A stretch of DNA of 32,000 nucleotides from Promethearchaeota archaeon. GTDB lineage: Archaea; Asgardarchaeota; Lokiarchaeia; Sigyniarchaeales; SOKP01. The DNA lies in the NCBI GenBank assembly GCA_030606485.1, contig JAUWGH010000001.1:1-32000 (forward strand), in the 5' to 3' direction. The number at the start of each line of letters is the position of its first letter. The first letter of the stretch is position 1. The notes under the pieces were generated by a model that made no database searches, was not told the DNA's origin, and saw only the letters and a program-made list of their open reading frames with translations. Of the stretch, positions 25,788 through 32,000 are shown in pieces. The translations under genes and the position numbers were made by a program.

Positions 25788-26504
25788 TTATAATTCTGCT
25801 AATAAACTTTCAACTTCAGATTTAGAAAGCAATTTATATATTTTCTCTTCACTAGAGATATGAGAAATTTTAATAGTTTCTGCTGTTAAGTCATCATCAA
25901 CACTTTCCTTTATAGCTCTTATTGCTAACAATTGAATTTCTCTTAATGAAAAGGTTGGGTTATATTCCTTCTCAATAAATTCCCTTGCAGTGCTCTCTCC
26001 CGACCCTAATGCATAAGCTTTAAAACTACGATATATCCCGCTTGGAGATGTTGTATAAATCTGAGGCCCATCTGAATCATAACCAATAAAAAATAAACTA
26101 CAACCGAAGGGTCGAATTCCGCCATACTGTGTATAGATTTGTTTTAAATCCGCAATAGATTTTACTAACATATTTATTCTTACTGGTTCATCATATGTTA
26201 ATCTATAAGATTGAGCTTGTACCCTTGCATAGTTTACCAATACCCTAGAATCTGCATGTAAACCTGAAATTGCACACCCTATATGTTTATCAATCTTAAA
26301 TAACTTATCGATTGAATCAATTTCCATTAAAGAAGATGCAATTTTAATATGTGCAGCTAAACACACATCATTTTTTGTTTTTATTCCTACAATTAAAGTT
26401 CCTCTTCTAACTGCCTCTAACGCATACTCTACTTGATATAATCTTCCCTCTGGGGAGAAAATAGTTAGAGCTCGATCATATTGAATTTTTCCGCCTCCAA
26501 ACAT
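25788..26504 (-). CDS. psmA: 20S proteasome alpha subunit
   Basis: YDRALTIFSPEGRLYQVEYALEAVRRG, GIRPFGCSL, ALGSG; ATG at 26504 (MFGG) preferred over TTG at 26516. Confidence 0.96.
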   Translation of the reverse strand: MFGGGKIQYDRALTIFSPEGRLYQVEYALEAVRRGTLIVGIKTKNDVCLAAHIKIASSLMEIDSIDKLFKIDKHIGCAISGLHADSRVLVNYARVQAQSYRLTYDEPVRINMLVKSIADLKQIYTQYGGIRPFGCSLFFIGYDSDGPQIYTTSPSGIYRSFKAYALGSGESTAREFIEKEYNPTFSLREIQLLAIRAIKESVDDDLTAETIKISHISSEEKIYKLLSKSEVESLLAEL

Positions 26505-26715
26505 CTCAGTTTTCAACCAAATTTTTAATAGTTAAACTTTTTATGAAATATTAATAAAAATTCCTACTTCTAGGTACAATAATAAAGAATTATCTTTTAT
26601 AAAATTAGATTTATCAAAATATAATTATTGTAGGAATAAATGGTTATAAAAATCTAATCAAGGAGAATTCTCAATTAAATAGTAAAAATTACTTTTTTTT
26701 ATCGTAAGTTCTTAT

Positions 26716-27261
26716 TCATAATTCTAAATTTACTTTTTTAAGAATTGCTAATACAAGCGATTTAAAAGCCTCTTTAATATTACCTCCCGTTTTTGCAGAA
26801 GTTTCAAAATAGCCTCCTGAATCATATTCTTCACTAATTGCTCGACCTTCTTCTGTCCCTACTTCCCTATAATCTTGTGCTAAATCAATCTTGTTTCCTA
26901 ACATCACTGATTGTTTCTGCCCAATTACTTTTTCTGCCTCTTCTTTCCAATTCGGTAGGTTTGTGAATGAACTCCGGCGTGTAACATCAAAAACATACAT
27001 TATTGCTGCAGCTCCACGATAGAAGGGGGGGCGAACAAATGAAAAATGACGTTGTCCAGCTAAATCCCAGAGTTGTAATCGTACCTCTAAATCAGGATAT
27101 TCTGGAATTTCAACTTTTTTAATCGCGAAATTGCTTCCAATCGTCATCACATATTGTTCGGTAAATTTCTTCTCTGTATATTGTAAAACTAAGGAAGTTT
27201 TTCCTACTCCTCCATCACCAATAACTACCACTTTATATATTAGTGCTTTTTTTATTGACAT
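26716..27261 (-). CDS. Rab-like small GTPase, no C-terminal prenylation motif
   Basis: G1 GDGGVGKT, G2 TIGSNF, G3 WDLAGQ, FYRGA, G4 NKID, G5 ETSAK; ends KKVNLEL. Confidence 0.93.
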   Translation of the reverse strand: MSIKKALIYKVVVIGDGGVGKTSLVLQYTEKKFTEQYVMTIGSNFAIKKVEIPEYPDLEVRLQLWDLAGQRHFSFVRPPFYRGAAAIMYVFDVTRRSSFTNLPNWKEEAEKVIGQKQSVMLGNKIDLAQDYREVGTEEGRAISEEYDSGGYFETSAKTGGNIKEAFKSLVLAILKKVNLEL

Positions 27262-27531
27262 GTTTGTAAAATAACTGTCTATTTTTTATTGGCTTGATAG
27301 ATTATTAATTTAATTCTAATAATTTGCTTTAATAAATATTTAGTATTTTAGAATTAATATAATTTATTTTTAATTTTAATTTCTAACGCTTTCAAGGTTC
27401 TTTTAGAACGATCTTTATAACAATACAGTATGGGTTTTTAAAAATTTGACTATTTATTCTAAAATTAGGAATTTTTATTTATTTATTATATTTCCACTAT
27501 TAATTTTAGTATTTCTACGCAATAAGTTGCA

Positions 27532-28401
27532 TTAAGCGGATAATTTTTCAGTTTGAATATCAATAACTCCTTCGATTTCATAGATTTCATTTTTTAAGGG
27601 CTCTAAATTATCTTTATTTAAAAGCTCAACATAAACTTCATAAATGCACTTATCGGCTTCTGTGCATATTCCTGCAGTAAAAATTAATGAGATATTATAT
27701 TTTGAAAAGATACTAACTATATCTTCCATAATTGCTGGTGTTAATTCAGTGCCAAAAATAATTTCCAACTTAGTTATTTCTTTCGAAGTAACTGGGATGA
27801 TATCTAATTTTAATGAATCTCCTCGTATTCTATGCACTATAAATAAATTATTTTTATTTTTAGTCAATTTTTGTAAATTATGAATCATTATTTCAGGAAT
27901 GGAAACTGTTTTAAGCTTTTGAAAAACCTTAAATTTAATTAATCTCCCTTCGGTTTCAACACTTTTAAGCGACAGGATTTTATATAACTTGTCTAATTTA
28001 CTATTTAGAGTTTTAAATCTTTTCTGAACATCTGATTTCTGCATTGAACTTGGATTGTGTATATAAAATGCTTTATACAAATCATCTATTTTTGTGATTT
28101 GATCAATAAATTTTTTCATTTCTAATTGATATTCTTTAATTTCAATTTCCTTTTGAATAATTACCGATAACATAATTAGTTCAATGCTTCCCCGTGCCCA
28201 ACCAGATGGTATTCTAAAAATCCAATTTGCTGTTCGAAGCTCAGAAGAAAAATCATGGGTGAAGAAACCATCATCACCAGTATCTAAGAGAGAAACTATT
28301 TGATTTAAGGTCTCTTTTTTTAAGTTTTTAATTAAATCTTCGGGCTTACTAGCGATTGCTTTAGGTCCTATAATTTTATCAAAATATACAAGTATTAACA
28401 T
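27532..28401 (-). CDS. Longin/uDENN-like N-terminal domain fused to C-terminal ACT-like domain
   Basis: LVYFDKIIGP and FRIPSGWARG at the N-terminus; C-terminal beta-alpha-beta-beta-alpha-beta pattern (IMEDIVSIFSKYNISLI...LKNEIYEIEGVIDI). Confidence 0.7.
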   Translation of the reverse strand: MLILVYFDKIIGPKAIASKPEDLIKNLKKETLNQIVSLLDTGDDGFFTHDFSSELRTANWIFRIPSGWARGSIELIMLSVIIQKEIEIKEYQLEMKKFIDQITKIDDLYKAFYIHNPSSMQKSDVQKRFKTLNSKLDKLYKILSLKSVETEGRLIKFKVFQKLKTVSIPEIMIHNLQKLTKNKNNLFIVHRIRGDSLKLDIIPVTSKEITKLEIIFGTELTPAIMEDIVSIFSKYNISLIFTAGICTEADKCIYEVYVELLNKDNLEPLKNEIYEIEGVIDIQTEKLSA

Positions 28402-28555: not shown

Positions 28556-28834
28556 TTATTTTCTCACAATCCTAAAGGTTTTAAAATCTCTATCTCCCCG
28601 ATAGTCAACATCGGTAACTGGAACTCTAACAAAATTTTCATGATCAAATTTTTTTTCAGGCGTTCTTTTTTGATAAAGAGAAAGATTACTCGCCATTCTG
28701 AGTTCCTTAAGCAAAAAATCCCGTACCGCAACCCTTATTAATTCACTTCTTGATGGATAAAGGCCTTCATGTCCTGTTAATTTATCAATGGCATTTATAT
28801 ATGGTTCTGGTATATTTACTGTAACAATTTTCAT
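28556..28834 (-). CDS. Ribbon-helix-helix transcription regulator
   Basis: MKIVTVNIPEPYINAIDKL...YPSRSELIRVAVRDFL; start moved to ATG 28834. Confidence 0.88.
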   Translation of the reverse strand: MKIVTVNIPEPYINAIDKLTGHEGLYPSRSELIRVAVRDFLLKELRMASNLSLYQKRTPEKKFDHENFVRVPVTDVDYRGDRDFKTFRIVRK

Positions 28835-29487
28835 AGTAAGGTTAAGCTCCTTGAATTTCAACACATTTTATTTTATCTGAGATAATGATCTATTATGATG
28901 TTCTAGTATTTAAAATTTTGTACGAACTGTTATTTTATAAAGGATACAGCCTTTTTTGTAAAATATATTTAAATAATTAACATAATAATAAATTATCAAA
29001 AAGATATAATTAAAAAAAATCTCTTTTTTTAGTCTAATTCCATTTTTCTTCAGAATTTTTAATTATAATTTTTTCAATTTTTCTTAATTACTATTTAAAA
29101 TTATTTTAAAAATATTTTAATTGTTGGTGAAAATTGTTTAATATTTTTTTAATTATTGATATAAGATTTCATAATCATTATTCAATTTCTATAAATTTTT
29201 AATCTCAATGGTGTTAATTTTATCAATTTTAAATTAGATTAAAGATTTTCGCTATTAAGTATTTTTTTTGAAGAAAAAAGAGTGTTTTGAGAAATATTAG
29301 TGGATTAATTCAGAACAGTTAATATGTAAAAATATGATATGCATGATTATTAAATTTTAAATTGTATTTTTGAAAGCTTTTGATGAATTTTGTCCTCTTA
29401 AACACTCCTACTTTTTCAAAACATAGCTAACAATTTATATAACTCTGATTTTGATTTTATTTTTATTCTATTTTTAGAGTTAAATTT

Positions 29488-29548: not shown

Positions 29549-30973
29549 TTGAGAATTATTTCAAACGATCTTACAAGAAAATTAAGAGTTTTAATTAAAA
29601 GTAGTAATTTTGATGTTAATAATTATTTAGTTTTTAATGAACTAAACAAAGAACAACAAAAGATCATTGATAATGCTATTTCTATTCTTAAGGAAAATAC
29701 AGTAGACGATGTAAAGGTATTTGGGGGCAATATTGACAAGAATGAAGAAAAGTTTGAGAAATTAAAAGAGAATATTAAGAAAGAATTAGAAAATGAAGAA
29801 TATAATGAAATTAAAAATGATCTTGAAAAATTAATAAATTCTTATGTTAAAAATTTTCAATTATTGATTCCAATGGTTTGCGGAGCGATTATCCCTGTTA
29901 AACAATTACCCTATGTTGAAGTGTATTTTCGGACAATTCCAAGAATTATGGTTGATAATGAAAAACCCGAAAAAATGTCAATTAATAATAATTCAATCTC
30001 ATATTACGGAGAAATTAAATGTATTATTCCACGGATTACCTTATTTGGAAAAATAAAAGATGCAGATCCGTTATTTGCACCCTTGATAGGTGATCTTGAT
30101 TTAGGTGACTTTAATCCGGAAAAATCAGAGCATAAAGGACCAATGATCGGGAATTATTCATATATAACTGAACTAATTACTTCAATGGATAAAGACACAA
30201 CCAAAAATAATTTAACTCGCTATCACGAACAGTATCAAAGGCATGGAGAACCAATTTGTGATTTTCTACTAAAGGATAAAGAATTAATGGATGCAATGGA
30301 AAAACTTTCCTCAGCCATAGAGTCAAAAAGAACCAGCTCATCTGTGTCAGTTTGCGCTATAGCAGTACCAAACATACAAGATAAGTCAACAATTGTTGTT
30401 GTTCAAGATGAAAGTAAATCACCAAACGCATATGCTACTTGCTTTGAAGCATTATTACGGTTCTCTGCCCTATGTTATGAAGCACCCTCTACAAAAAAAC
30501 CTTCAGAAATGAGTACTAGCCCAACACCTCCAACTCAAGCAGGACAGGCTATTGGACCAGGCGGACAGAGATTAGAGGTTTGGACTCAAGAAGAACTTGT
30601 AAAAGATGCAGCTGAGCGCGGGCTTGGAACTGGACTTCCACCAAACATGGAACTATGGACTGAAGAGCAATTAATAGATATGGCAAAATCTCGTACTGAT
30701 TTAGGAGTTAATTTACCTGAATGGTCTGAAGAAGAACTTGAAAAGCTAACAAAATCTCGTCAGGGAACACTAAATATTCCTGAATGGAAGGATACTGGCT
30801 TACCTGTATGTGAAAAGTGTGGTTATACACTCAGAGAAGGTTGGTCTGAGTGCCCTATTTGCAACTGGAAGGTTGGAGCGCCAGTACCTAAAGAAGAGCA
30901 AGAAAAAGATAGTTCTGATGATATTGAAAAAATCGAGCAAATTCAAAATGAAGATAAAAATGATTCAGAATGA
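29549..30973 (+). CDS. Hypothetical protein with W(T/S)xE(E/Q)L repeats and C-terminal zinc ribbon
   Basis: WTQEEL, WTEEQL, WSEEEL repeats; CEKCG...CPICNW; TTG start uncertain. Confidence 0.8.
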   Translation: MRIISNDLTRKLRVLIKSSNFDVNNYLVFNELNKEQQKIIDNAISILKENTVDDVKVFGGNIDKNEEKFEKLKENIKKELENEEYNEIKNDLEKLINSYVKNFQLLIPMVCGAIIPVKQLPYVEVYFRTIPRIMVDNEKPEKMSINNNSISYYGEIKCIIPRITLFGKIKDADPLFAPLIGDLDLGDFNPEKSEHKGPMIGNYSYITELITSMDKDTTKNNLTRYHEQYQRHGEPICDFLLKDKELMDAMEKLSSAIESKRTSSSVSVCAIAVPNIQDKSTIVVVQDESKSPNAYATCFEALLRFSALCYEAPSTKKPSEMSTSPTPPTQAGQAIGPGGQRLEVWTQEELVKDAAERGLGTGLPPNMELWTEEQLIDMAKSRTDLGVNLPEWSEEELEKLTKSRQGTLNIPEWKDTGLPVCEKCGYTLREGWSECPICNWKVGAPVPKEEQEKDSSDDIEKIEQIQNEDKNDSE

Positions 30974-31088: not shown

Positions 31089-32000
31089 ATGCTAAAAGAC
31101 ATATTCTTTATAAACAGTAGAGATTCCAGTGTACTAAATGTTGATTTAACCCAAGATAATTTTTCAAATATGAAAATAATAAGCTATCCAAAAAAATTAT
31201 CTAACATTGTTAAAAACAAGTCTATCTCAGATCTAATATTGAATTTTAAAGAAAAAGTATCCAGTCTCGAGGTGGGAAAAAATAAAACTCCTGTTTTGTA
31301 TTCCCCATTAATTACTGAAGGAATTAACATATATAGCTGTCTAATTTATCCCGATGCAATTATCGGTTTAATTTTGGATAAAGATGATAATCCCTATGAT
31401 TTAAAAGAAGTTTTTCAAGATCAAATTAACAAATATTTTTTACCTCAAAAGAAAAATATTATTAATAATCATTTCGAATTAGAAACACTATTAATCTCAA
31501 TCTTTATAGACATAAGACGATATTATGATGAAATTTTAGGATATTCTCCATTTTTAGCATTTAGAGATCATGGATCGATATTAAAAGTTTTTATTTTTGG
31601 GCTTGATGAAGCTGGTAAAACTTCATATGTACGAAGAATAACTACGGGAGAATATGATGAAAATTATTATGAACCAACTAGACAGTTCAATATTGATCAT
31701 TATACACATAATGATTACAATTTTATTTTTTGGGATGTTCCTGGTCAAGTAAGACTTAGATCTAAGTGGCTTTTAGGGATGCAAGATTCTAATATGTTAA
31801 TATATATGATAGATGCAGCCGATGAAGTAAGATTTGAAGAATCTAAAAAAGAATTATGGAATATTTTAGTTCGATACGAGCTTGAGGGTGTTCCTCTTCT
31901 AATTTTGGCTAATAAAATAGATTTGCCTTTTGCTCTCACATCAGAAAAGGAATTAATCACACATATTAATTTAAATGAAATTACTAATCGGACTTGGGAT
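31089..32000 (+). CDS. Arf-like small GTPase with about 160-aa N-terminal longin-like domain; runs off the window
   Basis: Manual translation from ATG 31089, open for 304 codons: G1 GLDEAGKT at residue 171, PT, G3 WDVPGQ, G4 ANKID. Confidence 0.9.
   Translation, partial: MLKDIFFINSRDSSVLNVDLTQDNFSNMKIISYPKKLSNIVKNKSISDLILNFKEKVSSLEVGKNKTPVLYSPLITEGINIYSCLIYPDAIIGLILDKDDNPYDLKEVFQDQINKYFLPQKKNIINNHFELETLLISIFIDIRRYYDEILGYSPFLAFRDHGSILKVFIFGLDEAGKTSYVRRITTGEYDENYYEPTRQFNIDHYTHNDYNFIFWDVPGQVRLRSKWLLGMQDSNMLIYMIDAADEVRFEESKKELWNILVRYELEGVPLLILANKIDLPFALTSEKELITHINLNEITNRTWD

Follow-up and report, generated by a model that had tools for sequence, protein, structure and literature searches.

The longin-ACT gene

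We analysed a stretch of 32,000 nucleotides (hereafter the window) from a Promethearchaeota archaeon of the Lokiarchaeia (order Sigyniarchaeales; assembly GCA_030606485.1, contig JAUWGH010000001.1, positions 1 to 32,000), in which a minus-strand gene at 27532-28401 codes for a protein of 289 aa, here called longin-ACT. According to the open reading frame (ORF), its translation and the full-length homologues, the protein is made of a longin domain, a small linker subdomain and an ACT-like domain. It starts with MLILVYFDKIIGPKAI and contains the motif FRIPSGWARGS, whose arginine, Arg70, is encoded by a CGG codon at 28194-28192. The next gene on the same strand, beyond an AT-rich spacer of 270 nt (27262-27531), codes for a Rab-like small GTPase of 181 aa (26716-27261; Pfam Ras, E = 4.8e-48, with motifs G1-G5). 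An earlier note, made by reading this DNA only, had described the ORF, the motif, the Arg70 codon (28192-28194) and the Rab-like gene following after 270 nt, and the translation, the codon check and the Ras match bear out all four. The window has a GC (guanine plus cytosine) content of about 27%, i.e. it is low-GC archaeal DNA; against this composition, promoter-like matches in the spacer occur at chance level, and no terminator-like hairpin was found in it.

The ORF is a real gene, as full-length homologues of the protein, carrying the database names Lokiarchaeota or Promethearchaeota, are found at identities between about 22% and 98%. An exhaustive HMMER search with the protein returned 296 relatives, about 35 of which have the whole architecture, while more than 100 share the N-terminal domain only, often joined to PAS and histidine-kinase modules. 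No NCBIfam model matched the protein and no Pfam model matched its residues 1-145, and profile searches of the PDB with the full-length protein, the N-domain, the core sheet, the Arg loop and the C-terminal half gave nothing significant. The DNA itself recurs in metagenomes from cold seeps, marine sediments and vents.

The N-terminal longin domain

The structure of residues 1-145 (27967-28401, minus strand) was modelled with AlphaFold2 from an alignment of 133 divergent N-domains (22-40% identity to the query). The model is of high predicted local confidence (predicted local distance difference test, pLDDT, of 94.6) and has longin topology, i.e. strand-strand-helix-strand-strand-strand-helix followed by C-terminal helices, with strands at residues 2-8, 12-19, 45-50, 56-65 and 73-82 and helices at 29-41 and 88-102. 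The earlier note had called the N-terminus a longin domain like those of FLCN and SMCR8, two eukaryotic GTPase-activating proteins (GAPs), and structure comparison of the model upholds this: the nearest solved structures include the arginine-finger GAP longins FLCN and NPRL2. The best match in VIA-align is FLCN (6nzd_H; Z 13.2 over 131 residues at 2.5 A), followed by NPRL2 (8fw5_B, Z 12.9) and a chain of the yeast SEA complex (8adl_S, Z 11.8). All other longins score 11.6 or less, the highest being a solved longin from a Lokiarchaeon (8yqg, Z 11.6), and generic longins stay below 10 (VAMP7, Z 9.9; AP2 sigma, Z 9.8). Chains of the C9orf72-SMCR8 complex score 9.0-9.7, and longins of the guanine nucleotide exchange factor (GEF) type, DENND1A (Z 9.5), Mon1-Ccz1 and TRAPP (up to 9.1), lie together at Z 8-9.5. 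The model is thus nearer to the GAP longins than to the SNARE, adaptor, TRAPP and DENN longins, by a margin of 2-3 Z units that is moderate. In Foldseek, longins fill the list of matches to the same model, with 8adl_S, 8dhb_J and 9o5d_D as the best. Residues 1-145, as modelled, are therefore a longin domain of the "GAP-type" class, to which FLCN, NPRL2 and SMCR8 belong.

The GP motif and Arg70

Nine residues are conserved in at least 90% of the 133 aligned N-domains: F7, G12, P13, F47, N59, F62, R70, G71 and E74. Two clusters stand out among them. The first is the "GP motif", G12-P13 (28363-28368, minus strand), in the loop that leads from strand 1 to strand 2, where the glycine is present in 132 of 133 sequences and the proline in 128. 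The second is R70-G71-S-I-E74 (28180-28194, minus strand), in the loop that connects strand 4 to strand 5, with R in 130/133, G in 131/133 and E in 121/133; this is the candidate arginine finger. None of G12, P13, R70, G71 and E74 varies across 27 full-length homologues, and the conservation of Arg70 on which the earlier note had made its proposal depend is accordingly found both in the divergent N-domains and in these 27 full-length proteins. In PMC12290439, the GP motif is defined as specific to GAP longins and absent from non-GAP longins.

A position equivalent to R70 can be sought in NPRL2. The family profile aligns its first 31 residues (strand 1-GP-strand 2) to residues 10-40 of NPRL2 with an E-value of 0.41, which is not significant alone; the alignment places G12-P13 on G20-P21 of the human protein. 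The catalytic arginine of NPRL2 is given as R78 (Shen et al. 2019, as cited in PMC8213707), so that the distance from P21, as located by the alignment at E 0.41, to R78 is 57 residues, the same as from P13 to R70. R70 may correspond to the arginine fingers of the eukaryotic proteins (FLCN R164, NPRL2 R78, SMCR8 R147), an equivalence that is only indirectly supported.

The C-terminal half

In the full-length model (pLDDT 73) the C-terminal half (C-half) splits into a small unit (residues 150-204) and a domain (208-288). The former belongs to a strand-helix-helix-strand-strand subdomain, residues 146-204 (27790-27966, minus strand), which is possibly winged-helix-like and is always present where the C-half occurs as a free-standing protein. 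The latter corresponds to residues 205-289 (27535-27789, minus strand), a strand-helix-strand-strand-helix-strand domain resembling ACT domains and the C-domain of NikR, with strands at 208-216, 237-248, 251-260 and 279-288 and helices at 222-233 and 263-274. Foldseek matches it to the NikR C-domain with a template modelling (TM) score of 0.85, as well as to IlvN and Rel ACT, and VIA-align gives Z 11.5 for the metal-binding domain of NikR and 10.7 for both the ACT domain of aspartate kinase and the small subunit of acetohydroxyacid synthase (AHAS). A cluster of archaeal ACT proteins in the ESM Atlas matches 114 residues with a TM score of 0.64. A roadblock fold was also considered for the C-terminal half and was rejected, the structural matches being ACT/ferredoxin-like.

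The ACT-like C-terminus announced in the earlier note thus holds for the fold and does not extend to membership by sequence. Pfam ACT_AHAS_ss matches the protein below threshold (E = 0.06; 14 bits vs a cut-off of 27), a single ACT match (0.047) and a single NikR_C match (9e-4) were obtained from 36 C-half homologues, and none of 10 free C-half proteins matched the Pfam ACT models. Since the link to ACT is sub-threshold by sequence, we describe the domain as ACT-like by its fold, without assigning it to the ACT family.

What is strongly conserved in the C-half is a signature in the hairpin of the ACT-like domain, G244-I-C246-x5-C252-x-Y254-E255-x-Y257 (27631-27672, minus strand). In 50 C-half sequences that span the phylum, its residues G244, C246, C252, Y254, E255 and Y257, together with P203, reach 98-100% conservation, and the signature is invariant in two further alignments (A4 and A5). 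Because the conserved residues sit at this Cys loop and not at the usual ACT glycine loop, we infer that the site would favour a metal, redox or other specific function over generic amino-acid binding. Sensing of amino acids, as the earlier note had suggested, is therefore not indicated by the conserved Cys-x5-Cys...YExY site.

Fused, free and split forms

A profile of residues 146-289 matches 330 of 400 genomes of the phylum, mostly in open frames of 137-170 aa. Among the matches listed, the C-half occurs outside the organism's order as free open frames of this length, and the fused form (frames of about 290-330 aa) is found only in the organism's own order, with a patchy distribution within its family. 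A search for longer fusions of the C-half (507-2000 aa), in itself weak evidence, found none. Residues 146-289 are thus an Asgard-wide module which elsewhere is usually a free-standing protein of about 145 aa. The genome under study (3.75 Mb in 13 contigs) has one fused gene, one free C-half gene and five further longin-domain paralogues.

A third, split form exists in sister families, where a longin protein of 413-488 aa with winged-helix-like segments (weak ArsR/NmtR match, E 0.33) is followed by a free C-half gene of 139-158 aa, the two genes overlapping or standing up to about 50 nt apart. Such pairs are found at L027 6451-8267, L044 6655-8545, L045 5153-7066, L046 4014-5738, L047 2687-4460, L048 5406-7116 and L049 6622-8347 (L-numbers label the related loci that were compared, and C-numbers the contigs of the organism's own genome). 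That the longin domain and the C-half are fused in one lineage and paired in an operon in another is good evidence that they work together.

Small GTPase genes near the family

The Rab-like protein of the window has the motifs expected of a small GTPase (P-loop GDGGVGKT, T40, DLAGQ, NKID and SAK), and its orthologues, with about 60% identity across Asgard archaea, are named "Rab family GTPase" at NCBI. It keeps the catalytic glutamine (in DLAGQ), which fits the expected substrate of an arginine-finger GAP. Its C-terminus, KKVNLEL, contains no cysteine, i.e. the prenylation motif of eukaryotic Rab proteins is absent.

The proposal of the earlier note that this gene is the partner of longin-ACT fares less well in the comparison of loci. 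The two genes are adjacent here and elsewhere in the same genus only (L001, L002); in a relative with 55% identity the Rab-like gene lies 4.9 kb off, behind four genes and still beside the proteasome alpha gene, and at the longin-ACT loci of other genera (L004, L006) it is absent. A GTPase gene also occurs near longin-ACT genes of other families, and it is not the same one. In a second family, 7 of 8 loci have a different Rab-like paralogue no more than 2 kb away, which is orthologous to C8:369229-369771 of the organism's genome. In a third, sister family, the fused gene (L026 and L040) and the split operon are both divergent from genes for Gtr1/RagA-like GTPases (Pfam 2e-26 and 5e-28). Within the organism's own family, the more widely kept GTPase neighbour is an Arf-like protein of 334 aa with an N-terminal extension of about 160 aa, encoded in the window on the plus strand at 31089-32000 and continuing to 32093 in the genome (Pfam Arf, 7.5e-34). 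Its orthologues are found 2.5-3 kb from the fused gene in at least five genera (L001, L029, L033, L035, L037, P0012). The N-terminal extension was considered as a possible member of the GP/Arg longin family and rejected, the family hidden Markov model (HMM) giving no match to it.

Three lineages with three classes of GTPase argue for a real functional link of the longin-ACT family to small GTPases, and at the same time argue against a fixed partnership with the Rab-like gene of the window. The linkage to GTPases that the earlier note had drawn from this one locus therefore stands for the family, in the form of repeated small-GTPase neighbours, and not for the particular gene, as the sister families have another Rab-like paralogue or Rag-like GTPases in its place. 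Whether the adjacency in the window is due to chance, with longin-ACT serving another GTPase, Arf-like or Rag-like, or none whose gene is close by, is in our estimate evenly poised. The restriction to one genus, the displacement and absence in other genera, the sister family's orthologue of a different gene and the presence of about 65 small GTPase genes in the genome all speak for chance. On the other side, a GTPase gene is found within 0.5 kb of only 4% of the genome's genes (the share rises to 9% at 2 kb and 11% at 3 kb), and the repeated independent gain of different GTPase neighbours argues for selection on proximity; related genomes are, for such neighbourhood counts, non-independent samples.

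Two arrangements show longins of this kind physically close to a GTPase. In the organism's genome, at C10:229162-230711 (L008 3163-4711), a free longin paralogue of 174 aa is encoded 43 nt after the gene for a Ras-like GTPase of 326 aa that has an N-terminal extension. At L039 9987-10949 (minus strand), a protein of 320 aa is a direct fusion of a GP/Arg longin (residues 4-141) with a small GTPase domain (152-318). The organism's free C-half gene (L008 13266-13730) lies about 9 kb from the pair on C10.

Proposed function and alternatives

By analogy with the eukaryotic GAP longins, longin-ACT may be a regulator of small GTPases, probably a GAP using R70, with its activity or assembly set by the ACT-like half; we consider this the most likely reading and give it an even chance of being right. 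The longin domain, probably dimeric, would dock onto a GTP-bound small GTPase and would insert R70 as an arginine finger, as do FLCN, NPRL2 and SMCR8. The ACT-like half would bind a small ligand or a metal at the Cys loop, and binding would change the assembly or the activity of the longin platform. Candidate substrates are the Rab-like protein (26716-27261), the Arf-like protein conserved in the family (31089 onward) and, at a distance of about 9 kb, the Rag-like GTPase encoded at C10:37193-38404. A more ambitious version sees in longin-ACT an archaeal prototype, in one polypeptide, of the longin GAPs by which eukaryotes sense nutrients (GATOR1, folliculin): the Asgard-wide ACT-like half, on binding a metabolite or metal at the invariant Cys loop, would switch the Arg70 finger on or off toward a Rag-, Arf- or Rab-like GTPase. 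Taken as a whole, this is unlikely.

Besides the narrow conservation of the Rab-like adjacency, several observations weigh against a catalytic and ligand-controlled longin-ACT. Eukaryotic GAP longins act as heterodimers with a DENN or C-terminal domain; in longin-ACT a DENN or NPRL2-type C-terminal domain is absent and the C-terminal half is ACT-like instead. No gene for a partner longin adjoins the longin-ACT gene in the window. The Pfam models Folliculin and NPR2 match neither the protein (E up to 1) nor the 133 family members (E up to 0.1), 5 of which weakly match Afi1 instead (best E 0.018). HMM profiles reach NPRL2 chains in the PDB only at E 0.4-1.1 and only over the first 31 residues, and the profile of the Arg region matches no PDB chain. 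R70 may not point in the same direction as R164 of FLCN and, being conserved together with E74, could form a structural salt bridge. The same type of longin is joined to PAS and histidine-kinase modules in many relatives, and it may therefore be a general interaction or input domain. For the C-terminal half, ribosomal protein S6 matches the ACT-like domain at Z of about 10.5, level with the ACT domains, as the ferredoxin-like fold is common; the fold alone is therefore not diagnostic of ACT. The classic ACT glycine loop between strand 1 and helix 1 also varies in distant homologues, F216-G217 being kept only among close relatives.

Alternatively, the longin domain may be a non-catalytic platform for GTPases, i.e. 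a GEF, an effector or a scaffold as in TRAPP, Mon1-Ccz1, DENN or Ragulator, with R70 and E74 in a structural role and an ACT-like half that only oligomerises. ACT domains often form dimers, R70 and E74 are indeed conserved together, and the longins of DENND1A, Mon1-Ccz1 and TRAPP also match the model. According to PMC10933270, longin and roadblock dimers are mainly GEFs or scaffolds. However, the best structural matches include the GAP longins FLCN and NPRL2 and not the GEF longins, and the GP motif, which non-GAP longins lack according to PMC12290439, is about 97% conserved in the longin-ACT family, and we consider such a platform rather improbable.

It is distinctly doubtful that the protein is instead a transcription co-regulator that senses a ligand. 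In this reading, the C-half would follow the logic of NikR or Lrp/AsnC and act with a DNA-binding protein encoded next to it, which is a ribbon-helix-helix (RHH) protein here and, elsewhere in the Asgard archaea, a double winged-helix regulator; the longin would couple the C-half to another partner or to dimerisation. In its favour, nearly all loci of the organism's family have an RHH gene 5' of the fused gene, free C-half genes in other classes adjoin a helix-turn-helix (HTH) protein of about 235 aa (HTH_HVO_0163_N, 1e-13), the metal-binding domain of NikR is the best structural match with one homologue reaching Pfam NikR_C, and the longin proteins of the split operons carry winged-helix-like segments. 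Against it, a small regulator gene beside its target is common and does not imply physical partnership, no DNA-binding domain was detected by sequence in the fused protein, and the longin's GP and Arg motifs, nearly invariant as they are, would be left unexplained.

Comparison with known systems

Longin-ACT is closest to FLCN, NPRL2/Npr2 and SMCR8, with which it shares the longin fold (best Z 13.2 for FLCN and 12.9 for NPRL2) and the GP motif between strands 1 and 2; its near-invariant arginine between strands 4 and 5 may correspond to theirs, NPRL2 having the same 57 residues from the GP proline to the arginine. The GTPases encoded near the family, Rag-, Arf- and Rab-like, also belong to the classes on which those GAPs act (PMC8213707). 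It differs from them in having the ACT-like module in place of a DENN or NPRL2-type C-terminal domain, and in the lack of a significant sequence-profile match and of an identified heterodimeric longin partner.

Asgard longins of NPRL2-like or FLCN/SMCR8 type have already been published (Liu et al., preprint 10.1101/2020.10.19.343400; Traffic 2025, PMC12290439). According to the latter, the "FLCN/SMCR8-type" ones have both the GP motif and the arginine finger, arranged alike, so the central idea is already in print; the questions of which GTPases the Asgard GAP-type longins serve and whether they act as GAPs are posed there as well. The longins of those two reports and longin-ACT have in common the domain class, the phylum and the GP/Arg motifs, and the fusions to PAS and histidine-kinase modules were recovered too. 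In contrast to the emphasis of PMC12290439 on Heimdallarchaeia, the longin-ACT family is Lokiarchaeial. The accessible parts of both texts make no mention of an ACT-like fusion partner and do not describe the Asgard-wide family of free C-halves or the split operons, and no paper combining Asgard, longin and "ACT domain" was found in the searchable literature. What appears to be new is the fusion itself, the family of C-halves that spans the phylum and bears the Cys-loop signature, the split operons, and GTPase neighbours that differ between lineages.

The C-terminal half resembles the ACT-fold regulators (NikR C-domain, aspartate kinase, AHAS small subunit, RelA ACT) in its fold of about 80 residues (Z 10-11.5, root-mean-square deviation 1.8-2.6 A) and in its regulatory position at the C-terminus of a multidomain protein. 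Unlike in those regulators, the sequence matches stay below thresholds and the conserved element is the Cys-x5-Cys...YExY hairpin, not the glycine loop. CASTOR1, the arginine sensor of mTORC1, also ties an ACT-type fold to Rag-GTPase nutrient signalling, which is an analogy only: with its four ACT domains, CASTOR1 targets GATOR2 and is not part of a GAP polypeptide, and the longin-ACT searches gave neither a sequence match nor a specific structural match to it.

In the cultured Lokiarchaeon MK-D1, gene order rarely helps to pair GTPases with their regulators (Tran et al. 2024). The longin-ACT family supplies concrete pairs, with fused or split longin and C-half genes beside genes for Rag-like, Rab-like or Arf-like GTPases, and its C-half, which has a sharply delimited signature, is a candidate sensor module. 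If the fusion does link a ligand to the inactivation of a GTPase, the roots of the logic by which the amino-acid branch of mTORC1 signalling works would lie in archaea, and if a sensor does gate an Arg70 switch, sensor-gated GTPase inactivation would predate eukaryotes. Otherwise, the analysis still delimits an uncharacterised protein family outside Pfam that occurs in most Asgard genomes.

Other genes of the neighbourhood

The RHH (CopG-like) gene of the window lies 154 nt upstream of the longin-ACT gene (28556-28864, minus strand; Pfam RHH_1, 5e-06). Within the organism's family this gene, which occurs in either orientation, is conserved more than any other neighbour. In other Asgard classes (L012 6075-6788; L014, L015, L018 and L021; neighbour cluster c2), the protein of about 235 aa next to the free C-half is a double winged-helix regulator which, like the RHH gene here, ties the C-half module to DNA-binding proteins. 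Beyond the RHH gene and divergently transcribed from it, a 474-aa protein with a C-terminal zinc ribbon is encoded at 29549-30973 on the plus strand (neighbour cluster c3, with L001, L006 and L029; weak Pfam zinc-ribbon matches only). The protein has no family assignment, and several genera of the family keep its gene as a neighbour of the RHH/longin-ACT pair.

On the other side, the genes for the Rab-like GTPase and the proteasome alpha subunit (25788-27261, minus strand) stay adjacent in relatives where the longin-ACT gene has moved away. Several genera (L006 6915-8174; L004 2067-3347; L028; L029) have after the fused gene a gene for a protein of about 420 aa with a weak HIT-domain match (E 0.001), which is followed by an NTP-transferase gene. 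In the window, a rearrangement has put the Rab-like gene at the place of the gene for this 420-aa protein.

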